From Candidatus Woesebacteria bacterium (GTDB lineage Bacteria; Patescibacteriota; Microgenomatia; UBA8517), in the NCBI GenBank assembly GCA_016432365.1, contig CP066686.1:64355-128354 (forward strand): 64,000 nucleotides of DNA, read 5' to 3'. Both the position numbers and the translations under genes were made by a program. This document shows positions 6,814 through 60,215 of the stretch, in pieces. The first letter of the stretch is position 1. Every line of letters starts with the position of its first letter. The notes below the pieces were generated by a model that saw only the letters and a list, made by a program, of their open reading frames with translations, was not told the DNA's origin and made no database searches.

Positions 6814-6890
6814 TGGTGTCAGGGGAGGGATTCGAACCCTCGACCTCAGCGTTATGATTGCCGTGCTCTAACCAACTGAGCTACCCTGAC
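6814..6890 (-). tRNA. tRNA with CAT anticodon (elongator Met or Ile2/lysidine); CCA encoded
   Basis: Minus-strand cloverleaf: acceptor GTCAGGG/CCCTGAC, D-arm GCTCAGTTGGTTAGAGC, anticodon loop AUCAUAA, T-arm GAGGGTTCGAATCCCTC, 3' ACCA. Confidence 0.85.
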
Positions 6891-7305: not shown

Positions 7306-8208
7306 CTAGCGCCAGTGTTTTTCATCAGGGTCGTGAGGCCGAATTACCGGAATCTCGGGTGCCGTCAAAGGCCGATCGGGGCGCCAATTCCAAGGCCGAT
7401 CCCACCAATTGGGAAAAGTCGGAACAGGTTCAGTCCAATCCCAATTGAAATTCCAGGTTTTGCGTAGTAAGGGCAAAAGATCCTCACGGAACTCGGTGCG
7501 CAGGAAAACCACGGGCTGTGAATCCATATTGTAACTCAAGCCTGTGCGAGCGTGGCTCATATGTTCTTCAGCGCCGGCGCCAATCGCAGCTCCACCCTTG
7601 GGTGTTGAGGAACCGCGTCTGCCAGAAGAAGAACCGTCGCGCAAATTGGCTTCAAATGTCAGAGGATCAAAACCTTTGACATAGGCGCCGCCCATACCAT
7701 CACCCTCATTCGTGGGTCGATCGTATTGGTGGCGGTTTCCTGCCACAGTGCGCTCGTAGATGCGGATTTGGCCGCGCCATTTTGTACTACCAAAAGCGTT
7801 CTCACCGATTGCCTCGCCATAACCCGACTTGGTAATGATTAGCGGTCGGCCGAGCTGGGCATTTGGATTCCCCAATTGATAAAAGAGCTGTTGGTCACCG
7901 GGAGCCAGTTCCCACATGTGGTCAACGTGACAAATATCAGGATCTGATTCACCATTATCCCACAAGTTCCGGGCCTCGAGAAAGGTCGGGTACGCACGCC
8001 AATTTGAGTTTCCATTCCAAATTCCGATACCAAGGCGCATACCCATTGTCACGGGAAGATAAATCTCATTACCCCATCTGAGCATGCGCAGAAGCACGCG
8101 GTTGCCCATGTCCTGAGCCCAAACAACAGTGTTCGAACCCGCCGGTCTGAAACTCTGGATCATTTCGAAGCTTTGCCGATTTCCGGTCGGCCAATTTTGA
8201 ATAGTCAT
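7306..8208 (-). CDS. Hypothetical protein, GC-rich, with a Trp-rich C-terminus (probably horizontally acquired)
   Basis: The track ORF is 7306..8301, but the start is probably the internal Met (MTIQNW...) at 8208, which is preceded by AAAGGAGAAAAAATG. Local GC is clearly higher than the flanks. The C-terminus reads NFNWDWTEPVPTFPNWWDRPWNWRPDRP. Confidence 0.55.
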   Translation of the reverse strand: MTIQNWPTGNRQSFEMIQSFRPAGSNTVVWAQDMGNRVLLRMLRWGNEIYLPVTMGMRLGIGIWNGNSNWRAYPTFLEARNLWDNGESDPDICHVDHMWELAPGDQQLFYQLGNPNAQLGRPLIITKSGYGEAIGENAFGSTKWRGQIRIYERTVAGNRHQYDRPTNEGDGMGGAYVKGFDPLTFEANLRDGSSSGRRGSSTPKGGAAIGAGAEEHMSHARTGLSYNMDSQPVVFLRTEFREDLLPLLRKTWNFNWDWTEPVPTFPNWWDRPWNWRPDRPLTAPEIPVIRPHDPDEKHWR

Positions 8209-8434
8209 TTTTTCTCCTTTTTGAATTGAACAAGCCGACAAAACACCACACTTAGATTTGTGGTTATCTAAGCACAAAAATCTCTGCCCAAACAGCCACA
8301 AATCTAACAGACGATTAAACTTTTAAAGAACAAAAGCATTTTACCAGAAATAGGTTTCGTGTCAACACTATGGGGCGAATAATTTCAGCCACCCCACACA
8401 TCTTACTCGCGGGGCGATTTGGCGGGGTTGGGTA

Positions 8435-8902: not shown

Positions 8903-9766
8903 ATGACACAAGATACGATCAAAAATCTGCTTCCCAAATTCATAGAGTCCCTTAAATCTAAAGGGCGCTCCCCTGCTACCGTGCTTGCCTATAGAAGCGA
9001 CCTTGAACAGCTTACCGGCTATTTGTTAAAAAGAGAAAGAGCTACTCCAGATCAGGTAAAGCCTGAGGATTTAGACTCGTTCCGTGACCAACTTTTGGCT
9101 GACAAGTACACACCCAAATCCGTCAGCCGCAAACTAAATGCCGTAAAAACATTCTTTAGGTGGATGATTACAGAAAATGCTATTAGCTTTGATCCAAGCT
9201 CTTCGGTTGCCCACCCTAAGATTGACAATGCCTTACCCAAATTCCTTTCACAGCTTGAGTATAGGGCCCTTCGCGACGTTGTAAGAAACGATGTTAGAAT
9301 TGCTGCTATTGTCGAACTTATCCTACAAACAGGTCTTAGAATCTCTGAGGTCGCCAATCTTAAACTTGAACGTTCCAAAGATGGTTCGCTTAAGATTGAG
9401 TCTTATGCTACCCAGCCGGAAAGAACAGCTCCTTTGAACAAACCGGCTCAGGAGGTTCTTGATTCTTATATGAAGATAAGACCTAAATCGGATTCTCCCT
9501 ATGTTTTTATCAGCAAAAACGGTAAACCACTGGCAGTAAGAAACATCAGAGCGTCAATTTCCAGATATATGCAAAGGGCAGAACTTCCAAATTATTCTGT
9601 AAATGACTTAAGGACCACGTTTATGGTGGAAAATCTCAAAGCAGGGGTAGATATTGTCCTTCTTTCTCAAGTTTCCGGACACAAACGTCTTTCTACCACA
9701 GAAAGGTATTTGGAACTTGCACAAATAACCGAGCCTGGTAAAAAACAGGTCTTAGTTGAGCTGTAA
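8903..9766 (+). CDS. Tyrosine site-specific recombinase/integrase (XerC/XerD family)
   Basis: It has an N-terminal SAM-like core-binding domain (LAYRSDLEQLTGYL) and a C-terminal catalytic domain with GLRISEVANLKL, the HxxR region and RYLEL (catalytic Tyr). Confidence 0.85.
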   Translation: MTQDTIKNLLPKFIESLKSKGRSPATVLAYRSDLEQLTGYLLKRERATPDQVKPEDLDSFRDQLLADKYTPKSVSRKLNAVKTFFRWMITENAISFDPSSSVAHPKIDNALPKFLSQLEYRALRDVVRNDVRIAAIVELILQTGLRISEVANLKLERSKDGSLKIESYATQPERTAPLNKPAQEVLDSYMKIRPKSDSPYVFISKNGKPLAVRNIRASISRYMQRAELPNYSVNDLRTTFMVENLKAGVDIVLLSQVSGHKRLSTTERYLELAQITEPGKKQVLVEL

Positions 9767-10334
9767 CTGGCCCAATTGGACTAATTAGTCCAAATTTGCC
9801 AAATTTGTTTTCCCTACGCTTCTTATACAGGTTTTCTTTAAATCCCCCTTCTTGAACGAATTTTTGTTCTTTTGCTCTAATAAGTTGGTCCAGTAAATAA
9901 CCCTGTTTCATACATAAACAAATCATTAGATTTGCAAAGTTTTCTGCGTTGTTGTAATCCAAATTGGTCCACTTTGACAAATCAGACAAATTTGTTTCTG
10001 TTCCAATCGTCTCCTTAAAACTTCTGATTTTTAAGACTCTTGGGTCGTTTTTATCCCAAATTGGCAAATGTCTTTGCCTTAAATAATCTTCAAAGTCTTC
10101 TGAAAGTTCAGAATAAGAGGCTCTACTAACACTGGTTAGCATCATTTCCGAGGCCGATGAAATTTCCTTAGATCCCTCAACTATATTTTGTTTACCACTT
10201 CTCCCGGCCTGGACCATTTGTTCAACAGTTCTTTTGAATTTCAAGTCAGACAAGTACCGGTCGCAGAAAACAACAGTGAAGTCGAATATCGTTACAGAAA
10301 GTCTGTAAACAAGAAGGTTTTTGTAGCCACCCAT
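9693..10334 (-). CDS. Four-helix-bundle family-like protein with a ~110-aa C-terminal extension (Avd/23S-IVS protein family?)
   Basis: The N-terminus (YRLSVTIFDFT...FKRTVEQMVQAGRSGKQNIVEG) aligns by eye to the four-helix-bundle protein at 40667..41029 (YKLSLLIYKLT...SQIRRAVISIPSNIAEG). Its 3' end overlaps the recombinase gene convergently. Confidence 0.4.
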   Translation of the reverse strand: MGGYKNLLVYRLSVTIFDFTVVFCDRYLSDLKFKRTVEQMVQAGRSGKQNIVEGSKEISSASEMMLTSVSRASYSELSEDFEDYLRQRHLPIWDKNDPRVLKIRSFKETIGTETNLSDLSKWTNLDYNNAENFANLMICLCMKQGYLLDQLIRAKEQKFVQEGGFKENLYKKRRENKFGKFGLISPIGPVTAQLRPVFYQARLFVQVPNTFLW

Positions 10335-10383
10335 ATAACCAAGTTAGACTAATTAGCCTAATTGGTCAAATTAGAACTTTTTG

Positions 10384-10577
10384 TGGTCTCGGATGGAATC
10401 GAACCATCGTGTCGACTTTATGTTAGTAAATTCTGGTGGAGCCGGATGGAGTCGGACCATCGAATCGACTTTATAAGAGTCGTGGCTTACCGTTAACCTA
10501 CGGCTCCCCAGAATTCACTAACAGTCAAGGCAAAGCCTTGTCATAAGAGTCGTGTCCTACCATTGAACGACGAGACC
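10384..10577 (-). tRNA. Interrupted (split/intron-containing) tRNA whose ~120-nt insert carries the complete tRNA above
   Basis: The 5' half is at 10577..~10543 (acceptor GGTCTCG, D-arm GTTCAATGGTAGGAC, anticodon stem CGACU + CUUAU). The 3' half is at ~10420..10384 (AGUCG, T-arm GATGGTTCGATTCCATC, acceptor CGAGACC complementary to the 5' half, discriminator A). The insert has a CAAGGC-TTT-GCCTTG hairpin and 13-bp inverted repeats (TGTTAGTGAATTC / GAATTTACTAACA) flanking the inner tRNA. Confidence 0.5.
10434..10507 (-). tRNA. tRNA with UAU anticodon (tRNA-Ile reading AUA), complete, CCA encoded
   Basis: Minus-strand cloverleaf: acceptor GGAGCCG/CGGCTCC, D-arm GGTTAACGGTAAGCC, anticodon arm CGACU-CUUAUAA-AGUCG, T-arm GATGGTCCGACTCCATC (T-loop TCCGACT, non-canonical at position 55), 3' ACCA. 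Confidence 0.65.
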
Positions 10578-10610
10578 AATGAGGCAATTATACCAAATAT
10601 ACGCGGAGAG

Positions 10611-10637
10611 ACTAGTTACTAGTAGCTAGCGACTAGT
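10611..10637. repeat. CTAG-rich palindromic intergenic repeat, copy 2 (actagttactagtagctagcgactagt)
   Basis: It overlaps the stop of the UGDH-like gene and lies next to the nested tRNA locus. Confidence 0.6.
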
Positions 10638-11477
10638 GGCTTTTTTAAATGCTTGTGGCATTTCTTCCCAATCACGGTGTTTCCTAACTTTGAGATTCTT
10701 TTTCCAAATAGCCTCAAGGGCAGAGACATCTACCTTTAATTTTTTGGCAAGACCCAGTATTCCCACCATATCTTTCGGGAAACACGCTCCCCCAAAGCCC
10801 ATATCGCCATCCGGCCCGGGAACCCCTAGGTGGGTTCCGATCCTAGGATCTGATTCAACCGCTTTTTGAACATCTAAATAATTTGCTCCGACCTTTTTAG
10901 ACAATTCATAAAATTCATTCGCCAAGAGGACTTTGCTGGCCAACATCAAATTGCTCATATATTTGATTACTTCTGCGCTTGTAGTATCGGTAACGACGTA
11001 TGGCTGATTCTTTGGAAGAATTGTTTTATAAATTTTTATCACCTTTAAAGCAACATCTTTTGATTCTGCCCCAATTACTGTTCGAGAGGGATTAAGAAAA
11101 TCACGGTTTGCGTTCTTTTGGGTGAGAAACTCGGGATTCATGACAAAGTTAACTCCGGGATATTTTTTGACCAAACTTTTTGCTGTTCCGGGAAGCGAAG
11201 TTGACTTGATAATAAGTATTTTAGACGTCCCCGATATTTTGGGAGCGATCTGATCAACCACACCGATAACTATACTCATGTCCATACCACTATAATCTTC
11301 AAATATTGGCGTTGGAACACAAATAAAAATAAAGTCTGACTTTTTTACAACCTCGTCCAAGGTATTTGGAGATTCTTTGAATTTATCAAACCAAAAGACT
11401 TTATTCTTCGGATTTGAAGAAAAACCCTCCCCGGTTGCGCGCCCTACAAAACCGTAGCCGATAACGCCAATATTCAT
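10626..11477 (-). CDS. UDP-glucose/GDP-mannose dehydrogenase family protein, unusually short (283 aa, lacks the usual C-terminal domain)
   Basis: It has the N-terminal Rossmann motif MNIGVIGYGFVGRA and the catalytic-Cys motif GGACFPKD. Confidence 0.6.
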   Translation of the reverse strand: MNIGVIGYGFVGRATGEGFSSNPKNKVFWFDKFKESPNTLDEVVKKSDFIFICVPTPIFEDYSGMDMSIVIGVVDQIAPKISGTSKILIIKSTSLPGTAKSLVKKYPGVNFVMNPEFLTQKNANRDFLNPSRTVIGAESKDVALKVIKIYKTILPKNQPYVVTDTTSAEVIKYMSNLMLASKVLLANEFYELSKKVGANYLDVQKAVESDPRIGTHLGVPGPDGDMGFGGACFPKDMVGILGLAKKLKVDVSALEAIWKKNLKVRKHRDWEEMPQAFKKATSR

Positions 11478-53333: not shown

Positions 53334-55223
53334 ATGGCAAATCCTCGTTTTAATGGCGTCAGGCCACCGTCTCGACCTGTCAGATTACCGCTTCCGACAG
53401 AAGCTGCGCAGCCACAGCGAAACCAGCGCCCCCCGCTTCGACCAGCTTTTGTGGCCGGTATTGTGTTCGTCGTGTTGTGCCTGCTCGTGAGCTCAGTCGG
53501 CTCGTACATTTGGTTTAACCGACCGAGTCAGCCAACCGAGCCTACCCCGACAGGACAGTCAGGTGGATTTGAACAGCCTACATCGGTCTTCGTTCCCGGT
53601 TCTTCGCCGACCCAAATCGCGATTCCTACTGGACCAAAAGCGCCAGTCACGATTGGATTTGTTTACTATGTCGGATATTACGAAGTGCCCTTGATGGCGC
53701 GCCTGAACAATCCCTACTATCAGGCAGTTCCTGTTCCGTTCGAATTCCAGGCAGAAGAAAACGGTGCGATACTGACTAAGGGTTCCGAATCCGAACAAAT
53801 CGAGATGCTTCGCAACGGCGAGATCGACATCTTGCTTACAACCAGCGATGTACTGGCCAGATACCCGACCATCGGAAAAGGTGTTGTCGTTTGGGATCGT
53901 AGCCATGGTGTTGACCAAATTTGGCTTTCGAATAATGGTCGCACACAAAGCTGTGCCGGACGCCCACTCAAAATCTTTAACGATCTTGGTGCAAAATACG
54001 ACACGAGCGGCGCCATGATGCAATCGCCCTGCGTTATAGCAGTGGTATTCAACTCTGTAAGCGAATACTACGCCCTGAGCTACACCAAAATCACCGGTAT
54101 GACCAAAAACGACATTACCTTCGCTTACTACGATACAGCGGCAGAAGCTGTAGCTGCTTTCAACAATGGCGAAGCCGATGCCGTTGCTTGTTGGGAACCT
54201 GACTGCCAAAGTGCCAACGATGGCAAATCTTTTAAACTGACAAGCACCATTGACCTGCACACGATTTATGACGTCATCTTGGTTTCACGTCAAGCCGACC
54301 AAAACAAGAAACCGTTGGTAATCGAAGCTTTGGCCGACCTCTTTGCTGTACGCAACATGTTCCTTGCAGACCCAGAAGGTACGGCAGAACTTGTTGCTCA
54401 GTGGCAATTCACGGCGCCGACGGAACCTACCAGTTGGTGGCTTGGCCCAACAGACGGTGCCACCTACTCTACAAACTGGTGGACTGGTGTCTCCTCCGGT
54501 ACGGCCTACGATGATATGCAGTACTGGGGCTTGGGTGGAATTGCGCAGGCTAAGTTTGACCACAACCTTGTTTATCTTTCAAGTCCTGATCTGTGGTGGG
54601 ATAACCTTGAACTTGAACGCAAAGTCTGGGAATGGGGCGGCGCACAACTGGAAACACCATTCGATCCTAAAACAATGGTTGATACGTCTTACTTGCAAGC
54701 GCTTTCCGGTCGCAAAAATCTGTATGCGCCCAAAGGCATGTCTTTCTTAGACAACACCTTCTCACCGTTCCCGCCCGAGGCGGCACTGCTACCGGAGACA
54801 ACTCGTGTTATTGCCGAATATGCATGTCCAAATGTATTTTTTGGCCCTAACGCAACCACCATCCCTCAAGGAAGTGTGCAACAACCGAATCCTCAATACG
54901 TGGCCTTTGTCGACTGTGTCAAAACATTGATTCAGGTCATGAATGAGGCCGATGTCCGTATTGAGATCGTCGGTTCTGCCGCTAACCCTGATCCAGCGAT
55001 CTTTGGATCACTCTACGCTCATTGCGGCGAGCTCACGGATGACGACTACTGTTTGAAAATCGCAAAAGGGCGAGCAAATTGGGCCTGGAACGAGCTTGTG
55101 AATCTGAGTTTTGATATGACTCGCGTCACGATGTCTACCGAAGTTGGACCACGCACAAGCAGTCAAAGTGTGATGTCCGACAGCCGGTTCATCATTATCA
55201 GAATCCTGGCTGCAGGTTCCTAA
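53334..55223 (+). CDS. Membrane-anchored protein with an NMT1/SsuA-type substrate-binding-like domain plus a large C-terminal domain; GC-rich, first gene of the island
   Basis: It has a strong SD (AAAGGAGAAAGAAAATG), a Pro-rich N-terminus with a TM helix, then IGFVYYVGYYEVPLMARL...GEIDILLTTSDVLA (SBP-like). GC is ~55% against a ~38% background. Confidence 0.5.
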   Translation: MANPRFNGVRPPSRPVRLPLPTEAAQPQRNQRPPLRPAFVAGIVFVVLCLLVSSVGSYIWFNRPSQPTEPTPTGQSGGFEQPTSVFVPGSSPTQIAIPTGPKAPVTIGFVYYVGYYEVPLMARLNNPYYQAVPVPFEFQAEENGAILTKGSESEQIEMLRNGEIDILLTTSDVLARYPTIGKGVVVWDRSHGVDQIWLSNNGRTQSCAGRPLKIFNDLGAKYDTSGAMMQSPCVIAVVFNSVSEYYALSYTKITGMTKNDITFAYYDTAAEAVAAFNNGEADAVACWEPDCQSANDGKSFKLTSTIDLHTIYDVILVSRQADQNKKPLVIEALADLFAVRNMFLADPEGTAELVAQWQFTAPTEPTSWWLGPTDGATYSTNWWTGVSSGTAYDDMQYWGLGGIAQAKFDHNLVYLSSPDLWWDNLELERKVWEWGGAQLETPFDPKTMVDTSYLQALSGRKNLYAPKGMSFLDNTFSPFPPEAALLPETTRVIAEYACPNVFFGPNATTIPQGSVQQPNPQYVAFVDCVKTLIQVMNEADVRIEIVGSAANPDPAIFGSLYAHCGELTDDDYCLKIAKGRANWAWNELVNLSFDMTRVTMSTEVGPRTSSQSVMSDSRFIIIRILAAGS

Positions 55224-55309
55224 GTTCTAGGATAGATTTGAAGTAAGTTATGCCGGTACGGTTAACGTTGACACAAAGTCAGCAACAACCGTACCGGCAA
55301 TTTTTTTGG

Positions 55310-56101
55310 TTATTCTCGCCTTCCGTTAGCAAAACTTTCACTGGCCTCATCGTAAAATCTCTGAATAAGATACCTCAACTGAACCAGATTTAAGTAAGCA
55401 ATCCTGTCGGATGGATTGGCAATTTTTCCACGGCCATCTGCGCTGTCTCCAATTTTGTTTAACTCTGCGTCCGCAATTGCATTAGTTACCAGATCAGAAT
55501 ACCCCTTTTGATCAGCCACGTTTTGTTTTTCATCTATTTCCGAAAGAGCATTAATAACTTTTAGCAAAAAACTCCTATAAGCCAGTTCGTTTGAAGGGTT
55601 ACCTGCGGGATCAAAAAGAATTATGCTAAGCCTCTGACTTTCCGATTGCGGAATTATCAAACTGTATGACTCCGACTCCCCGCTTCCCCAATTTATCTGC
55701 TTTTCAAGAATTGCCTTTAGTAAATCGAGTTCTTCAACCTCAATAATCTCTATTTCTCCACTGGTATTTACACAAGCCAACGAAAGCACATCCTCACTAA
55801 ATTGATTACCGTTATCCCGATTGTCTATAGGCCTCGACATTTCAGTAAAATCGAAAGCTACCGGAGTGAATGAAAGCTCCTCAGTCGTTAAAGTCAAGGG
55901 TTGCGGGTCTACCCCTCTTTCCATTTCCCCCGCATTTGAAGTTAGTAGTCTCCTATTTGTGACCACGGTAGGATACCCGGCTTCGTCCCATCCAAAATGA
56001 AGAATTTGACCACGACCTCCCCTTCCAGCTACCTGGACAAGACCGAAAACATAATTTAGTTGTCTATTAGGCTGCCTAGTCTCAATTTCAATGTTTGCCA
56101 T
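55310..56101 (-). CDS. Hypothetical protein (263 aa), last gene of the minus-strand island operon
   Basis: An unassigned ORF with moderate GC and no SD. Confidence 0.4.
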   Translation of the reverse strand: MANIEIETRQPNRQLNYVFGLVQVAGRGGRGQILHFGWDEAGYPTVVTNRRLLTSNAGEMERGVDPQPLTLTTEELSFTPVAFDFTEMSRPIDNRDNGNQFSEDVLSLACVNTSGEIEIIEVEELDLLKAILEKQINWGSGESESYSLIIPQSESQRLSIILFDPAGNPSNELAYRSFLLKVINALSEIDEKQNVADQKGYSDLVTNAIADAELNKIGDSADGRGKIANPSDRIAYLNLVQLRYLIQRFYDEASESFANGRRE

Positions 56102-56183
56102 ATTTATTTTCTAAAAATATTTAAATGTAAATCCTGTTGCCGGGTAGTTTATATAAACCTATCCGGCAACAGAGTGTAACTTA

Positions 56184-57158
56184 CTATCCTTTATACCCCC
56201 GGGCATACTCATCGGCCTCGGCCAGCGTCGAGCGAACCGACTGATACTTCGCAACTTCCGCCGCAAACTTCTCCACCTCAGCCTGGGCAACTCCCTTGAT
56301 GGTTGCGGAATTCCCAATCTGATTGGCGGCAAGCGCATTGGCGCCGTAAAGCATGTTCTGAATTCGTTCCACGTTCCAGGTCATGTTTGCCAACTGCTTT
56401 AGAACCGCGTCAGGATCGCCGAGCTTGGCCTCCAGTTGTTCCATGAACGTGAGTTGTTTCAAGAGAAGAACAACATCCTCAGACTTCATGTCGAGAACAG
56501 GCAAGGTCGCCCAATCCAGAACAACCGGTGATTCGGCAGGAGCCGCGTAAGCGATCTTGCGGAATGCCGAACCGAGCTTGCCGCGCCAATAGGCAATTCC
56601 TGTTTCCGCGACCGGACGGGACTGCTCTTCCTTCCACAAATCGACAACCCTGATAACAGGCGGGTTTTTTGTCAGATCGTTGAAGAAATCGAACTGCCCG
56701 GCTACACGGTCTTGAATCTTCTGCGCCGGCGCTTGTGCGAGATCCTGTTCGTCAAACTCGGCCTTTGCAATGCGGTCAAGCTCCTCGAATGCCTCAGGAT
56801 TCATCTCCCGCGTGGTGCGCTTCGAGATTCTGTCCGCGAGTTCCATTCCCTGGTTAGCCACAACCACCAAACAATCAGCAATGGCTTTTTGCACCGAGGA
56901 AGGGGTCACGCCGTCGATCGACGCTTGCATCATTGTAAACGCCAGATCAACATCCAGTCCCAATCTGTTATTGGTGAGCAGGATGGCTGCAAGACGAACC
57001 TTACCCATGATCATTTTGAGATTGGGCACGTCCGCCACCCAGGCTTTTACCAGATCTTCTGCATCCAAAACCTGCGGTCCGGTTGCGGAAACTGGCTCGG
57101 CTACAGCCTGAACGGGCACCGCCGTGCCAGGTTTTTCGTCCTTACTTTTTGGGGTCAT
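56184..57158 (-). CDS. Hypothetical protein (324 aa), GC-rich, downstream of the E1 gene
   Basis: It has a strong SD (AAAAGGAGAAAACAATG) and no recognisable motifs. Confidence 0.45.
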   Translation of the reverse strand: MTPKSKDEKPGTAVPVQAVAEPVSATGPQVLDAEDLVKAWVADVPNLKMIMGKVRLAAILLTNNRLGLDVDLAFTMMQASIDGVTPSSVQKAIADCLVVVANQGMELADRISKRTTREMNPEAFEELDRIAKAEFDEQDLAQAPAQKIQDRVAGQFDFFNDLTKNPPVIRVVDLWKEEQSRPVAETGIAYWRGKLGSAFRKIAYAAPAESPVVLDWATLPVLDMKSEDVVLLLKQLTFMEQLEAKLGDPDAVLKQLANMTWNVERIQNMLYGANALAANQIGNSATIKGVAQAEVEKFAAEVAKYQSVRSTLAEADEYARGYKG

Positions 57159-57394
57159 TGTTTTCTCCTTTTAATCCAAAAGTATTGGTTTGAAACGACA
57201 AAGAGCGATTTGTGATAAAAATCACAAGCTTTTAGTAACCCAGGGAGTTTATAGGATAAAAGAAGAAAAATCAACTATGGGTTGAGGGTTTTTGCCAAAA
57301 AAAAGGTGGTACTGTTTTCTGAAATTAATCAGTAACAGTACCACCTGTCGTGCTAAGTCTCCAGACTAAACTGGATCATCCATATCGTGCGAAA

Positions 57395-57715
57395 TTACTC
57401 GCTGCGCTCTTCGCCTTCTTCAGTGGCCGCAAATTCCGTCTTTTTGACGGCAGCAGCAACTTGGCCGGGCTCGGGCTCAGGAGCGGACTCGGTGGGGGCA
57501 TCTTTGAAGGTCAAAGTGACCTTTTTGCCGCCATCAGGCTGATCTTCGAACTGGCATCCCGTGACGGCCGCCAACAGATCAATGCTCTCAGCAGTGATGT
57601 CGGGCATATCCTTCGGCGTCCAATTGACGACACCGTTTTCGTCGGCCTTGGCGAACAGGGCTTCCCATGTGGCAGCAGGGCCACCGGTCAAATTACCAGG
57701 CATGCGTGTGTTCAT
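57395..57715 (-). CDS. Hypothetical acidic protein (106 aa), GC-rich, immediately downstream of the E1 gene
   Basis: It has a strong SD (AAGGAGAAAAAAATG) and a Glu/Pro-rich C-terminus. Confidence 0.4.
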   Translation of the reverse strand: MNTRMPGNLTGGPAATWEALFAKADENGVVNWTPKDMPDITAESIDLLAAVTGCQFEDQPDGGKKVTLTFKDAPTESAPEPEPGQVAAAVKKTEFAATEEGEERSE

Positions 57716-57732
57716 TTTTTTCTCCTTGTGAA

Positions 57733-58665
57733 TCAGATGTTGGATGCGCTTGTAACATCATGCGTATGCGCAGTGCATTCGCTCCACCTTTCAAGCGCTA
57801 GAGGAAAGGTAGAATTCCGGATGAGGAGCGGAAACCGCCCATTTTCTTCCGGACCAAACATCATTGTCCTCTGCATCGAAAGCTTCGACTGCAGGGCAAT
57901 GTATTCGGAAAGTTCTCTCATGATATCCCCCTGGCGGAGCCTTCGAACTTCAACCCAGTCCTGGAAAGCGATCATCAAAACTGTAGGGTCGATTTTCTTG
58001 GTCGTGGCTACCACGTCCATGACGCTCATTGCCATCCAGTCGGCAATTATACCAACCGGGGCGCCCAAAGACGGAACAGCCTGCGGGGCTCCTTCAGGAC
58101 TACGAAACTGAGTCGGATCAAACCCGTAGTTTTGATCGGCCGGATGACCGGAATACTCCAAGTTTCCCAACGCTCCTTGTGCGCAGACAAAACATACTTT
58201 ATCGGGATGTGGCAAAGTAACAACCTGGCCGCCTTTCCCTTGAGCATATACAGAGCCGACAATCATCGGAATATTATGCTTCTCGCACCAGGCGCTGATC
58301 CTGTATTTAACGTCCTCGTCATCTACAGAGACAATTGCAGCGGCTGCGTCGGTGTGTTCCTCAAAGATCGCTTCGGCATCACCAACGTGGGCAATAACTT
58401 TCTCACCCGGTACGCCGTGCTCGATAAGGGTTTCCCGACAGCCGATTGCTTTGGGCTTACCGATCCACGATTCGTCCAACCAGTGTCTCTCGATGTTCTC
58501 GACTTTCAGGTTTTTAGGGTCAGCAATTACGATTTGTCGCCACCACGGGTAGGCAAGTTTTGACATCGCCCAACTGCCGACACTTCCCGCGCCCCAAAAA
58601 ACCAGCTTCGAAGCTTTGACTTTACTCAAGTCATAGACATTCGGAAATCGTGCCGGTCCGTTCAT
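57733..58665 (-). CDS. ThiF/MoeB-type E1-like ubiquitin-activating enzyme homolog (BilD-like)
   Basis: It has the Rossmann motif LVFWGAGSVGSWAMSKLA...IVIADPKNLKVENIERH (the GxGxxG...D...N[LI]xR[QH] pattern of ThiF/E1) and a CxxC pair (VCFVCAQG). The start overlaps the JAB gene stop (ATGA). Confidence 0.75.
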   Translation of the reverse strand: MNGPARFPNVYDLSKVKASKLVFWGAGSVGSWAMSKLAYPWWRQIVIADPKNLKVENIERHWLDESWIGKPKAIGCRETLIEHGVPGEKVIAHVGDAEAIFEEHTDAAAAIVSVDDEDVKYRISAWCEKHNIPMIVGSVYAQGKGGQVVTLPHPDKVCFVCAQGALGNLEYSGHPADQNYGFDPTQFRSPEGAPQAVPSLGAPVGIIADWMAMSVMDVVATTKKIDPTVLMIAFQDWVEVRRLRQGDIMRELSEYIALQSKLSMQRTMMFGPEENGRFPLLIRNSTFPLALERWSECTAHTHDVTSASNI

Positions 58666-59621
58666 AACTCACCTCTTGCTTCAAGTTTGAATATGGCCTC
58701 GATCAAATCCTCGCCGGGACTCCACAAAGGGCCTTCTAACAGCCTTTTTGAATTATAGTCACCTTGCTCGGTAGCTGATTTGCCTTCTAAGGCGTCTACG
58801 CTAAACTTTGGTGCCGCCTCGGGATAGTTCCAGGGTGTAACAATGTACAAAGTTCCACGCCAGACTTTTTCTTTTGTGACTTTAAAAACTATCTCCTGTG
58901 GCGGACCATCGCGAACATCGCGATATGAGACTTCAACTTCGGCGCCATAGTTAGTGATGTGCCTTAACTGCTCAAAATAGTCAGCGTCATTTGTAAATTG
59001 CCATCCCAAAGGAGGCAACATTGGCGCAGACTTGGCTTCAATGATGGTCGGGGTGACTGTAATGGGTTCGGTGATACCCATAGCCGCCATGGCTTTTGAG
59101 TAATAATAAAACACGATCCGAACCCTGGTGAACTCATTTACATCGACATAACCGGAGGTAGCCTTAAATTTCCAGTCTCCCGGGTTTAGAATTAAAACGA
59201 GAGGTCCTACAGCAACTTCCAACCCGTCTACGTTGATTGCATCCTTGATGGATTGTATATCAGTTCCGCTGTATTGGTTGAAATTCAAAGTGTGGTGGCT
59301 GTGCCCTTTATAAAGATACGCACACTTTCCACCTGGTTTTGAACCGAGTTTTTTTCGAAAAAGACCCTCGTTGGCGGTTAACCATATAAGCGCCTCTTTC
59401 TGACCGTCACCACCAAATGCAAGTTTGGCGTATCCTTTTTCAATATCTTCAGGGATCGGTTGGATAATATGAGTAACAATCACCGACTGGTGATCGTCCA
59501 TTATCACACCCCATAAACCGAAACCCGTTTCAATCGCAGGATTGGCTAAAACCTCGTTTACCATGGCGATAGCAGCACCTTTGGTCACTAAAATTCGCGG
59601 CCGTTTGGCTGTAATTTCCAT
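58662..59621 (-). CDS. JAB/MPN (JAMM) metallopeptidase, deubiquitinase-like, with a ~170-aa C-terminal domain (BilC-like)
   Basis: It has the JAMM motif: a Glu (IETGFGLWG), then HSHHTLNFNQYSGTD matching H-x-H-x(7-10)-S-x-x-D. It has a strong SD. Confidence 0.75.
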   Translation of the reverse strand: MEITAKRPRILVTKGAAIAMVNEVLANPAIETGFGLWGVIMDDHQSVIVTHIIQPIPEDIEKGYAKLAFGGDGQKEALIWLTANEGLFRKKLGSKPGGKCAYLYKGHSHHTLNFNQYSGTDIQSIKDAINVDGLEVAVGPLVLILNPGDWKFKATSGYVDVNEFTRVRIVFYYYSKAMAAMGITEPITVTPTIIEAKSAPMLPPLGWQFTNDADYFEQLRHITNYGAEVEVSYRDVRDGPPQEIVFKVTKEKVWRGTLYIVTPWNYPEAAPKFSVDALEGKSATEQGDYNSKRLLEGPLWSPGEDLIEAIFKLEARGEL

Positions 59622-59630
59622 TTTTCCTCC

Positions 59631-60215
59631 TTACCAGCCGTGCTTATCGTAGTGCCATACAGCCCAATCGAAAAAGGCCTGCATGAAACTGATTATGGTA
59701 TCGCGGCCCTTGACCCAGTCGTCCGAATCGGCAAAAAAGCATACCCACCCGTTTTCATACATGTGGTTTGAATGCATATCGCCGTCAAAGCGTTTGTAAC
59801 GTGGGTCGTCTATCCGAACGTGTGGCGGCTTATACGGCCACCTAGGGTCAAATCTGATCTCGACCCATTTGTCGATAAGAAGTTCGGGCGGGCGAGGTTG
59901 GCGCCTAAGTTGGGGTCTGTCCCTGAAAACCCGCATTTTGAACTGCAACAGCGGCTGCGGTTCACCATCAACTTGGACAAAATCTCCCCATTTGAATTGG
60001 TCAACATAAACCTGTAAACCTGCGTCCTTGTAAATTCTGGGAACACCGGTTCCGTTCTCTTCCCCTACAACCTTGGTTTTTTTTAAATAAAACCAATCCC
60101 TTATCGACTTGATCACGGCTGCATAGGAATAAAGGGGGTCGCCTTTGGTAAAGTTGGCCCGCGCTTTTTTAGGATCCCAAGATCCTGGAAAATCTGTAAA
60201 CCAGTTGGTTGTCAT
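59631..60215 (-). CDS. Ubiquitin-conjugating E2-like enzyme (UBC fold; BilB-like)
   Basis: It has IRFDPRWPYKPPHVRI...HSNHMYENGWVCFF, which matches the canonical UBC signature FPxxYPFKPPKVxF...HPNIxxxGxICL with the catalytic Cys. It has a strong SD. Confidence 0.75.
   Translation of the reverse strand: MTTNWFTDFPGSWDPKKARANFTKGDPLYSYAAVIKSIRDWFYLKKTKVVGEENGTGVPRIYKDAGLQVYVDQFKWGDFVQVDGEPQPLLQFKMRVFRDRPQLRRQPRPPELLIDKWVEIRFDPRWPYKPPHVRIDDPRYKRFDGDMHSNHMYENGWVCFFADSDDWVKGRDTIISFMQAFFDWAVWHYDKHGW

Follow-up and report, generated by a model that had tools for sequence, protein, structure and literature searches.

A complete tRNA-Ile(UAU) gene nested in the anticodon loop of another in a Candidatus Woesebacteria bacterium looks like the overwriting of an essential tRNA gene rather than an intron

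Introduction

How does a complete tRNA gene come to lie inside the anticodon loop of another tRNA gene, and which of the two serves the cell? The question is raised by a locus in a 64-kb stretch of DNA (64,000 nucleotides; hereafter the window) from the ~1.08-Mb genome of a bacterium, Candidatus Woesebacteria. No published description of nested tRNA genes in bacteria was found in the literature searched. A first-pass annotation, made from the sequence alone, had offered three explanations: a tRNA intron that itself encodes a tRNA, a permuted or split-tRNA-like arrangement, or a scar of site-specific recombination. The last of these is the closest, although the two features cited in its favour, a nearby recombinase gene and a CTAG repeat, are not specific to the interrupted state. 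The reading favoured here, which is considered probable, is that a promoter-less replacement tRNA cassette was inserted site-specifically into a resident tRNA-Ile(UAU) gene, and that the outer halves are a recent relic of that gene.

Anatomy of the nested locus

On the minus strand of the window, an insert interrupts a 71-nt tRNA-Ile(UAU) gene midway through its anticodon loop (Table 1). All elements of the tRNA within a split tRNA described by the first-pass annotation proved to be in place, and ARAGORN, Rfam, the predicted fold and an uninterrupted allele in a relative (L139; see below) agree. The 5′ half of the outer gene matches positions 2–36 of a tRNA-Ile(UAU) profile (nhmmer, E = 4e-7), and the 3′ half matches positions 35–73 (E = 1e-7); they are identical to the first 35 nt and the last 36 nt, respectively, of the intact gene L139:2376-2446. 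The 3′ half has a canonical T arm and no encoded CCA, and its acceptor strand is the perfect complement of that of the 5′ half. None of the stems of the outer gene carries a substitution, and the halves, joined in silico, are called as a tRNA by ARAGORN.

The insert had been estimated at ~120 nt; its exact length is 123 nt. Its parts are a complete tRNA-Ile(UAU), the 16-bp stalk that bears it and a small hairpin. It contains no ORF; 74 of the 123 nt are tRNA, and 49 nt of non-tRNA sequence remain. The anticodon loop contains the palindrome TTATAA, in the centre of which the insert sits; the central AT can be assigned to either junction. The stalk comprises 15 Watson–Crick pairs and one G.U pair. 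It had been reported as 13-bp inverted repeats; these do flank the inner tRNA, but their length is 16 bp when UGG/CCA is counted. The inner tRNA, with its discriminator A at 10437 and an encoded CCA at 10436..10434, is called by ARAGORN and matches Rfam RF00005 over its full length (60.7 bits, E = 1e-10). The long ORFs of the window use AUA at 18 per 1000 codons, so that an AUA decoder is needed; the inner tRNA-Ile(UAU) is presumed to be a functional one. An intron-aware search (ARAGORN, introns up to 200 nt), which the first-pass annotation had suggested, reported the inner gene alone and did not recognise the outer one as a tRNA with an intron. Elsewhere in the 64-kb window, profile searches detected no half-tRNA relics.

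Table 1. Features of the nested locus and its neighbourhood, in window positions.
Feature	Position	Strand	Details
Xer-like tyrosine recombinase gene, 287 aa	8903..9766	+	NCBIfam XerC/XerA/XerD 143–152 bits, all below curated cut-offs
Outer tRNA-Ile(UAU), 3′ half	10384..10419	-	AAAGTCG, variable loop, T arm GATGGTTCGATTCCATC, acceptor CGAGACC, discriminator A
Insert (cassette), 123 nt	10420..10542	-	filled site compared with empty site L139
Stalk, 3′ arm CCAGAATTTACTAACA	10421..10436	-	takes in CCA end of inner tRNA
Inner intact tRNA-Ile(UAU)	10434..10507	-	acceptor GGAGCCG/CGGCTCC; anticodon TAT 10475..10473
Stalk, 5′ arm TGTTAGTGAATTCTGG	10508..10523	-	pairs with 10436..10421
Hairpin hp1, CAAGGC-TTT-GCCTTG	10526..10540	-	in MFE fold
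Outer tRNA-Ile(UAU), 5′ half	10543..10577	-	acceptor GGTCTCG, D arm, anticodon stem CGACT, loop CTTAT
Putative extended −10 element TGGTATAAT	10587..10595	-	9 nt upstream of outer tRNA 5′ end; read by eye

The identical nested sequence occurs in an independent Logan assembly (L001), and analogous nests are present in NCBI, ENA, JGI and Logan assemblies; the locus is therefore not an assembly artefact.

The sole promoter-like element for the whole nested unit is TGGTATAAT; a −35/−10 consensus scan gave no match to a full two-hexamer promoter. In every nested locus the outermost 5′ half is preceded, at the same position, by a TGnTATAAT or TATAAT box, as is the simple tRNA in relatives. Promoter function of TGGTATAAT is suggested by its sequence. 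The absence of any other promoter-like box from the nested loci supports expression from the promoter of the target gene.

Fold and covariation

The first-pass annotation had proposed folding the insert with its flanks. The 197-nt unit folds into the nested structure (MFE −81 kcal/mol, z = −7.2; none of 200 shuffles equalled it). Both the MFE and the centroid structure show a three-way junction of anticodon stem, hairpin and stalk, and neither has a bulge-helix-bulge, that is, a pair of 3-nt bulges 4 bp apart. Between the window and a second nested locus, L092, 64 pairs are conserved, 24 of them with changes on both sides, and none is broken. The stalk shows three double compensatory changes and a one-sided one, and the counterpart of hp1 in L092, in the same place, is CAAAC-GTA-GTTTG, a compensatory change.

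Across cassettes, the stalks and hairpins comprise 225 Watson–Crick pairs, 10 sense-strand G.U pairs and no A.C pair, and the fold is better on the sense than on the antisense strand in 11 of 15 scaffolds. Type II stalks have 9–13 bp only. The sequences at the junctions are able to pair (UUAUG/CAUAA); in L014, L022 and L063 they are TTAC..GTAA, a covariation in the manner of an inverted rather than a direct repeat. This pairing and covariation would also fit an RNA processing helix, which counts against the replacement reading.

Empty site and recurrence in relatives

The empty site is represented by L139, which carries the outer gene uninterrupted and identical to the window's joined halves at 71 of 71 positions; it scores 64.8 bits with the Rfam tRNA model, and a neighbouring gene has 87% amino-acid identity to that of the window. 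The first-pass annotation had considered that the outer tRNA would read UAU or CAU, depending on the splice point; the intact allele bears out UAU and not CAU. As part of its grounds for refutation it had named relatives with an uninterrupted outer tRNA, together with degradation of this locus: L139 has the uninterrupted outer tRNA, but the locus in the window is not degraded.

Recurrence was assessed in 73 distinct syntenic loci of Candidatus Woesebacteria with an intact tRNA-Ile(UAU), sampled by anchoring on one syntenic gene. Half-tRNA relics broken at the same loop position (profile positions 35/36) occur in at least 22 of the 73, of which nine are nested, three have a 5′ relic only and ten a 3′ relic only. 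Each locus has exactly one intact tRNA-Ile(UAU) gene, and two were found in none of the 73. Over half of the related loci have an interrupted copy that is degenerate or missing one half, while none is without an uninterrupted copy. The compact insert architecture of stalk, tRNA and hairpin is common to a dozen or more independent nests. In five loci (L010, L031, L063, L093 and L136), a 5′-truncated copy has in its anticodon loop a conserved two-hairpin unit and no tRNA, a class that the replacement model does not explain in detail. Several further degenerate relics were seen by eye, beyond the 22.

Decay of outer copies

Outer copies are found in all states of preservation. They are perfect in the window, L092, L049 and L050, have damaged anticodon stems in L014, L022 and L082, carry extra insertions in the D loop or T loop in L019 and L010, and are truncated in L011, L013, L016 and L030. 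L011 and L010 also keep the outer 3′ half of the window, the latter with a T-loop insertion. Taken alone, the outer gene of the window could still be functional if a novel form of splicing existed, a point that weighs against the replacement reading. In L147, a nearby tRNA(CAU) gene is also nested, three to four layers deep, and decay grows from the innermost intact copy outward.

Formation of the relics by recombination among the AT sites of anticodon loops, which predicts hybrid tRNAs, was considered and rejected. In L013, L016 and L030, the acceptor strand of the 5′ relic is unpaired with the 3′ strand of the intact gene; ordinary deletions therefore fit these relic classes better.

Cassette lineages and genomic context

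The same cassette lineages are found in different targets. Three different outer genes contain the GGAGCCG+CCA lineage (the window, L019 and L100), two contain the GGATCTG cassette (L014 and L022) and three an identical GGGCTTG cassette (L011, L013 and L050); the flanking coding DNA of species with common cassettes is only 66–75% identical. Two tRNA lineages change places between outer and inner position, GGAACCG between L049 and L082, and GGGCCTG between L030 and L092.

A regex search of the sampled loci and the window found the hairpin and junction motifs nowhere but in tRNA relics. Among the sampled loci, cassettes were found only within tRNA genes, and none was free or circular, which also counts against the replacement reading. 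Viral contigs were scanned with four patterns, namely the shared anticodon arm, the type I scaffold, the two-hairpin unit and the predicted junction of a cassette circle (...GAATTTACTAACAT abutting GACAAGGCTTTGCC...), with chance matches or none. The 197-nt unit has no BLAST match in the phage and plasmid collections.

The tyrosine recombinase gene that the first-pass annotation had noted at 700 bp is present, at a distance of 618 bp. It is not specific to the interrupted state: nested and non-nested genomes both have it in synteny, and it adjoins the uninterrupted alleles L139, L012 and L132. In L147, the gene separates the tRNA-Ile locus from the tRNA(CAU) nest. The Xer-like protein is only a candidate for the insertion enzyme. 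The CTAG repeat, also adduced earlier, is a CTAG-rich stretch at the 3′ end of the upstream gene and shows no link to the insert. The genes between tRNA and recombinase vary among species. A GC-skew profile gave no sign of a replication terminus or dif site at the locus.

A replacement cassette as the proposed explanation

In the favoured explanation, a promoter-less cassette of 123 nt would have entered the exact centre (TTATAA) of the anticodon loop of the resident tRNA-Ile(UAU). The insertion would destroy the old gene, and the tRNA of the cassette would take over its function. Transcription from the promoter of the old gene would cross its 5′ half and continue into the cassette, and ordinary end-processing would then free the inner tRNA, with RNase P acting at the 5′ end and trimming at the 3′ end. 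RNase III cuts rRNA processing stalks and 23S intervening sequences, where a stable RNA likewise stands on a long inverted-repeat helix, is freed by a double-strand-specific nuclease and leaves flanks that are not religated. A comparable cut of the long stalk may precede end-processing of the tRNA; the likeness serves as an analogy for this processing step only.

The outer halves would then be a very recent, non-functional relic. In Woesebacteria, related cassettes, probably moving as units, would repeatedly have struck tRNA-Ile(UAU) and a tRNA(CAU) gene, each newcomer entering the intact loop of the currently functional copy. This would build nests up to three to four layers deep, and the outer layers would decay and be deleted. 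Insertion might be carried out by a structure- or site-specific recombinase, for which the Xer-like neighbour is a candidate, or by homing-type repair after a cut of the intact loop.

A more far-reaching proposal is put forward tentatively, as a possibility rather than an expectation. The inserts may form a new class of minimal non-autonomous 'matryoshka' tRNA cassettes of ~110–125 nt, with a tRNA on a structured stalk as their sole cargo, which home into the anticodon loop of the same tRNA, kill and replace the resident gene, recreate their own target and drive a rapid turnover of tRNA-Ile UAU and tRNA CAU; a structure-guided recombinase, possibly Xer-like, would act on hairpin-folded DNA.

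Comparison with known mobile elements

Integron cassettes resemble the inserts in several respects. They are promoter-less, have hairpin arms that are conserved in structure and variable in sequence, use one site downstream of a resident promoter, have a tyrosine recombinase gene close by and build serial arrays. Integron arrays are tandem, however, whereas the arrays here are nested, and the cargo is an ORF in the former and a tRNA in the latter. The R and L boxes of attC (GTTRRRY; R''/R' RYYYAAC/GTTRRRY) are absent at the cassette ends, and the neighbouring recombinase scores 46 bits with the integron integrase model, against a cut-off of 265.

Classical integrative elements carry an integrase gene inside and rebuild the tRNA through a direct repeat of its 3′ segment, typically 10–60 bp, at both ends; here, the two junctions have AT alone in common and the outer tRNA stays broken. 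The insert lacks an ORF, and the Xer-like gene lies outside it. With regard to MITE- or IS-type elements, the insert ends are often TGAC...GTCA or CGAC...GTCG and the junction AT is self-complementary; AC on the left and GT on the right in L014, L022 and L063 form an inverted repeat, which argues against a target-site duplication. Palindrome-associated elements derived from IS200/IS605 insert 3′ of a fixed tetra- or pentanucleotide without duplicating it, have similar subterminal hairpins at both ends and go with a Y1 transposase in the genome. Here, the sequence before the insert is TTAT, TCAT or TTAC, and one end is next to a hairpin; the two ends, however, do not have similar hairpins.

Alternative explanations

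Homing-like spread differs from the replacement reading in the mechanism of insertion only. A nuclease would cut the DNA of the intact loop, or DNA would be taken up, and the nested allele would be copied by homologous recombination through the tRNA halves. This route would suit outer genes that are chimeric near the junction (the 5′ junction-proximal sequence of L014 is unlike that of L013, which has the same outer gene) and a fragment, ..TCTCTTAC abutting ATTAAAATTTGG, that is common to L011 and L022 in different contexts. The D and T arms of tRNAs are conserved enough to act as short homology, and homing endonucleases are common in Patescibacteria introns (PMC13011429). The outer gene of the window, however, equals the intact allele up to the junction, with no co-conversion tract, although the outer gene of a donor could match. 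Homology arms of ~35 nt are short, the first nest needs a separate origin and no endonuclease gene was identified; homing-like spread is considered unlikely.

Anticodon loops are classical integrase targets. A phage or other element with its own tRNA-Ile could have integrated there without rebuilding the tRNA and could later have been reduced by deletion to the tRNA and its att flanks; attP would then equal the predicted junction, ...ACTAACAT abutting GACAAGG.... The variable gene content between tRNA and recombinase gene would be in keeping with such a history, as would a perfect 39-nt duplicate of the 3′ half past a 28-nt spacer in L067, which resembles an attL/attR pair. Its logic would be that of tRNA-dependent lysogeny in actinobacteriophages (Guerrero-Bustamante and Hatfull 2024, PMC10865867). 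In both cases, a resident tRNA is split and the same isotype is supplied (here both are tRNA-Ile(UAU)), and only insertions that bring a replacement survive (PMC10865867). The actinobacterial elements are whole temperate phages with their own tyrosine integrase and a common core of ~10 bp (PMC10865867), whereas the insert here has 110–125 nt, consists only of a tRNA on a stalk and a hairpin, has no coding capacity, shares only AT at its junctions, would use the promoter of the target and is recursive, leading to nests. A shrunken element is made quite improbable by the dozen or more independent nests, all compact, of the same architecture and free of other element remnants. The window and L092 share this architecture despite a flank identity of 67%, the junctions lack an att core of ~10 bp or more, and nothing similar was found in the phage, plasmid and viral-contig collections.

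A functional intron would require that the 123-nt insert is spliced from the outer pre-tRNA by a novel bacterial route, for example by cuts in an extended anticodon helix and RNA ligation, such that one transcript yields two tRNA-Ile(UAU). The perfect outer cloverleaves of the window, L092, L049 and L050 speak for this, as do the junctions, which can extend the anticodon stem as a helix (TTAT..ATAA covaries with TTAC..GTAA), and the conserved three-way junction with its compensatory changes and sense-strand G.U pairs. There is also a precedent, since Patescibacteria have group I introns in tRNA anticodon loops (PMC13011429). These are self-splicing, ~200 nt or more in length, follow a 5′ exon that ends in U and themselves end in G; the functional product is the tRNA that they interrupt (PMC13011429). 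They share with the present case the phylum, the anticodon-loop site and a host tRNA that is missed or mis-called by annotation tools (PMC13011429).

The insert differs from them in that it has no ribozyme match and that the interrupted copy appears dead. As the first-pass annotation had held, 123 nt is too short for a group I intron, and without the inner tRNA only the 49 nt are left. Neither group I, group II nor any other ribozyme was matched at E <= 10; apart from the inner tRNA, a cmscan of 10300..10700 at this threshold gave just one match, a weak antisense one to a plastid UTR family. The ends do not follow the group I rule: with a 5′ exon ...CUUAU the insert ends ...ACAU, and with ...CUU it ends ...UAAC. 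A hammerhead-like three-way junction (CUUAUGA, similar to CUGAUGA) was rejected, as the catalytic G and the GAAA element are missing and Rfam gives no match.

Archaeal disrupted tRNA genes include bulge-helix-bulge introns, some with a box C/D RNA, as well as split and tri-split tRNAs, and a Caldiarchaeum tRNA-Thr locus is disrupted by a mobile element (PMC4090602, PMC3293823). As is proposed for the present locus, a functional RNA can lie inside a tRNA interruption and tRNA fragments can be left by mobile-element activity; archaeal interruptions are also found in D and T loops (PMC4090602, PMC3293823). In these archaeal cases the interrupted gene is functional and depends on a bulge-helix-bulge motif and the archaeal splicing endonuclease, whereas the host here is a bacterium, the fold has no bulge-helix-bulge and the embedded RNA is a copy of the same tRNA. 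Both products of splicing would be the same isoacceptor, so there would be no selection for splicing. With the frequent loss or degeneration of the interrupted copy, the constant presence of an uninterrupted one and the outward decay of multilayer nests, this makes an intron very improbable. A split or permuted arrangement is at odds with halves that are collinear, 123 nt apart, on one strand and under one promoter.

Chance resemblance or an assembly chimera has a negligible probability, given the z-score of −7.2, tRNA-Ile profile matches of both halves at E about 1e-7, their identity to the real L139 gene, the same sequence in an independent assembly and analogous nests in many assemblies from four sources.

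Implications

If the replacement reading is correct, an essential single-copy tRNA gene can be repeatedly overwritten by tiny self-complementing inserts. Each would be a compact selfish or addictive element that destroys its target, supplies a replacement and regenerates the target. If identified, the activity that inserts cassettes so precisely, at the centre of a 7-nt loop, could serve as a tool. For annotation, tRNA finders report the inner gene and miss the halves, and intron-aware tools could wrongly call a spliced tRNA. The locus bears on the debate over the origin of disrupted tRNA genes and on tRNA genes as integration sites. For Woesebacteria, repeated overwriting would explain the strong divergence of tRNA-Ile(UAU) at one syntenic locus between related species.

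Anatomy of the nested locus

The first-pass annotation placed a complete tRNA inside the anticodon loop of another, and every element of that anatomy was found as placed by minus-strand reading, ARAGORN, Rfam and folding. ARAGORN calls tRNA-Ile(UAU) for the inner gene only and leaves the outer gene uncalled; the inner tRNA scores 60.7 bits at full length against the Rfam tRNA model, and the outer halves are recognised as a tRNA when joined in silico. The nested structure is the exact fold of a 197-nt stretch (−81 kcal/mol, z = −7.2 versus shuffles), and the identical sequence occurs in an independent assembly (L001; L numbers denote the homologous loci and contigs compared with the window). 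It is real and non-random. At position 55 of the inner tRNA (window 10455; T loop TCCGACT), C replaces the near-universal U, a variant shared by numerous tRNA-Ile(UAU) and tRNA(CAU) genes of these bacteria that seem to be functional.

Elements of the nested tRNA locus in the window
Feature	Position	Strand	Remarks
Extended −10 box TGGTATAAT	10595..10587	minus	9 nt upstream of the outer tRNA start GGTCTCG
Outer tRNA, 5' half	ends 10543	minus	acceptor GGTCTCG, D arm, anticodon stem CGACT, loop CTTAT; sequence reading 10200..10800
Hairpin CAAGGC-TTT-GCCTTG	10540..10526	minus	followed by AC
Stalk arms, 16 nt	10523..10508 pairing with 10436..10421	minus	
Inner complete tRNA	10507..10434	minus	CCA end; between stalk arms
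Outer tRNA, 3' half	10419..10384	minus	after second stalk arm

The empty site

Comparison with related genomes, one of the checks named in the annotation, supplied the empty site. L139, a relative with an 87%-identical dehydrogenase, carries an uninterrupted tRNA-Ile(UAU) at the same place (64.8 bits, Rfam), identical at 71/71 positions to the window halves joined at CTTAT/AAAG. This empty site delimits an insert of 123 nt (10542..10420) and puts the insertion point midway in the palindromic loop sequence TTATAA, the central AT being assignable to either side. It also settles the outer anticodon as UAU, so that CAU, previously held open, falls away.

Recurrence at the syntenic locus

Syntenic loci from 33 GTDB species genomes, 80 JGI metagenome contigs and several single look-ups were scanned with a profile derived from 48 different tRNA-Ile(UAU) sequences. 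Among 73 distinct loci with an intact tRNA-Ile(UAU), nine are nested, with a relic (a half or degenerate copy) on either side of the intact gene; three have only a 5' relic upstream and ten only a 3' relic downstream. Two intact tRNA-Ile(UAU) genes occur together in 0 of the 73. Degenerate relics were seen by eye in at least six further loci (L010, L019, L100, L059, L075, L103). Relic breakpoints lie at profile positions 35/36.

Outer copies grade from perfect (window, L092, L049, L050), through those with a broken anticodon stem (L014, L022, L082) or extra D-loop or T-loop insertions (L019, L010), to truncated ones (L011, L013, L016, L030). The closest nested relative, L011 (flanking gene at 84% nucleotide identity with the window), retains the window-type outer 3' half together with 21 nt from the 5' half; between them lie two more partial layers and a different inner tRNA.

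Across related species (L010–L139), the tRNA-Ile(UAU) at this one conserved locus is unusually variable, with more than 15 acceptor stems. The tRNA gene is found in both orientations, with a separate promoter for each: TTTGGTATAATTGCCTCA beside the dehydrogenase gene, CTGATATAATACGACTTAG beside the recombinase gene. Reciprocal relics are also found: at L139:2490-2520 a 3' fragment of a GGATCTC-type tRNA lies downstream of an intact GGTCTCG gene, and at L010:3484-3585 the GGTCTCG gene is left, downstream of an intact GGATCTC gene, as an interrupted 3' portion.

Cassette architecture and probable mobility

Two cassette arrangements occur between CTTAT and ATAAAG. Type I (window, L092) has a hairpin followed by stalk-tRNA-stalk; in type II (L011, L014, L019, L022, L049, L050, L082, L100), stalk-tRNA-stalk precedes a hairpin at the right junction. 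A conserved two-hairpin unit lacking a tRNA, e.g. GCCAAGCGAAGCTTGGGACACGTTCTTCGAATGTG, lies between the same motifs in the 5'-truncated relics of L010, L031, L063, L093 and L136, being regularly found in the anticodon loop of such relics downstream of the intact gene. Between L063 and L136 the unit is identical at 34/35 positions and the flanking gene at 71%.

Scaffolds and tRNAs recur in different combinations. The scaffold GACAA..TTGACTGTTAnTnnATTnTGG is common to the window and L092, which have different tRNAs, inner as well as outer, and no more than 67% identity in flanking coding DNA; a joint fold conserves 64 pairs, 24 with both sides changed and 0 broken. The GGAGCCG+CCA lineage sits in three different outer genes (window, L019, L100), the GGATCTG lineage in two (L014, L022), and identical copies of a GGGCTTG cassette in three (L011, L013, L050). 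Outer and inner roles are swapped between genomes in the GGAACCG (L049, L082) and GGGCCTG (L030, L092) lineages. There are at least 12 distinct outer-cassette combinations and therefore many independent insertions at one locus. Repeatedly, an intact resident gene has been split by a compact cassette with a complete gene for the same tRNA.

Read on the sense strand, stalks and hairpins comprise 225 Watson-Crick pairs, 10 G.U and 0 A.C; the right-hand hairpin has a conserved G.U and the stalk base a conserved purine-purine mismatch. In 11 of 15 scaffolds the sense strand is the stabler. These elements have the look of structures formed by a single strand, the sense strand, and such predicted strand specificity would fit either a role in RNA processing or recognition of hairpin-folded DNA at insertion. 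Cassette tRNAs often encode CCA paired with an upstream TGG; many stand-alone genes at the locus have no CCA.

Relics of different tRNAs in L010 (3545-3566) and L063 share a conserved 22-nt T-loop insert, ATGAGAACTAAyCTrCrrTTGG; the L063 relic is flanked by the intact tRNA and the final 3' half. Extra T-loop insertions are also present in L059 and L019 relics, in L019 with a D-loop insertion too. The shared 22-nt insert suggests a second small element targeting tRNA loops.

Nests at a tRNA(CAU) gene

About 1–2 kb from the tRNA-Ile(UAU) locus, beyond the recombinase gene, there is a second target, a tRNA(CAU) gene. The presence of an initiator-like tRNA(CAU) as well as tRNA-Ile(UAU) makes elongator tRNA-Met its probable identity. 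At L019:5082-5121 (minus strand), a tRNA(CAU) 5' relic ending ..ATCAT/GAC stands before an intact gene. In the 90%-identical relative L147 there is a nest three to four layers deep (9190-9582, plus strand) with layers of the form ..TCAT/GA-stalk-(tRNA+CCA)-stalk-hairpin/ATAA... Decay grows outward: the innermost layer is intact, the one around it has a single acceptor mismatch, the third has a degenerate 5' half, and only 11 nt remain of the outermost. Such an order is expected if each insertion in a series hits whichever loop is intact at the time and the older layers then decay neutrally. In the window, the tRNA(CAU) gene (6814..6890) is simple and uninterrupted, and profile searches found no other tRNA relics in the window.

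Genomic context

Candidatus Woesebacteria belong to the Patescibacteria/CPR. The gene upstream of the tRNA locus encodes a UDP-glucose/GDP-mannose dehydrogenase-family protein, which matches a Candidatus Woesebacteria database entry at 100% identity, and relatives keep the order VirB4-like ATPase, dehydrogenase, tRNA locus, variable gene, convergent Xer-like tyrosine recombinase, DivIC. The recombinase scores 143–152 bits against the XerC, XerA and XerD models, under their curated cut-offs. The slot between tRNA locus and recombinase is itself variable, as its occupants differ among species: a four-helix-bundle protein with a 4helix_suffix domain in the window (9693-10334, minus strand), this type also in L011 and L012; a TPR protein in L010 and L133; an unrelated 240-aa protein in L139; and nothing in many other species. 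The 4helix_suffix family is known from 23S rRNA intervening sequences.

The CTAG repeat, earlier taken to support recombination, is a palindromic stretch (GCTAGCTACTAGTAACTAGT, 10611-10645) that overlaps the dehydrogenase stop codon and scores as a terminator-like hairpin on the plus strand; it is conserved in L011 and shows no connection with the insert. Elsewhere in the window, G+C reaches 0.47–0.50 at 54001-60000 (about 0.41 otherwise), where no rRNA or other Rfam family passes gathering thresholds. A 331-aa ORF between the tRNA cluster and DivIC (7306-8301, minus strand), unusually rich in Trp/Arg/Gly and matching no NCBIfam family, may not be a real gene.

Proposed process and alternatives

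The probable explanation, whatever the enzyme, is that self-complementing replacement cassettes, each carrying a tRNA, insert site-specifically; this locus is one case of a process that recurs in Woesebacteria and has apparently not been described before. The Xer-like gene sits between both hotspots, tRNA-Ile(UAU) and tRNA(CAU); the annotation drew support from its proximity, which loses force because the gene is equally present beside uninterrupted alleles, and the recombinase is thus only a candidate. A homing-like route is possible, in which a break made in an intact loop is mended by copying a nested allele, the two tRNA halves providing the homology; this would account for chimeric outer genes, e.g. 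in L014.

Of the earlier proposals the site-specific recombination scar comes closest. It is not a classical att duplication: AT alone is common to both junctions. In L014, L022 and L063 the junction dinucleotides differ (AC left, GT right) and are inverted, not direct, which argues against target-site duplication and favours either pairing between the junctions or terminal inverted repeats (TGAC..GTCA, CGAC..GTCG). Phage, plasmid and viral-contig collections gave no match to the nested unit or cassette motifs. The intron reading is not supported: subtracting the tRNA leaves 49 nt, too few for a group I/II ribozyme; neither possible boundary follows the group I U...G rule (PMC13011429); at E ≤ 10 the insert has no Rfam match beyond the inner tRNA; the fold contains no bulge-helix-bulge; and the host is a bacterium.

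With cassette insertion as the preferred reading, the inner gene would be the functional AUA decoder, since AUA makes up 18 of every 1000 codons and an intact copy is retained throughout. It appears to have no promoter of its own and would be transcribed from that of the outer gene; in every nest a promoter-like box lies ahead of the outermost 5' half. The inner tRNA would be freed by RNase P together with processing of its 3' end. On the model of rRNA processing stems, RNase III may first open the stalk, a long helix of 16 bp extended by the 7 bp of the acceptor stem.

Some features are shared with group I introns of Patescibacteria tRNAs (PMC13011429), with disrupted tRNAs of archaea (PMC4090602, PMC3293823) and with integron cassettes, and each of these comparisons fails at least one defining test. 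No published description of bacterial tRNA-in-tRNA nesting was found within a limited literature coverage, so novelty is not proven. [quoted passage not shown] In Woesebacteria, by contrast, the element comes down to the tRNA itself, and insertion is recursive, giving nests.
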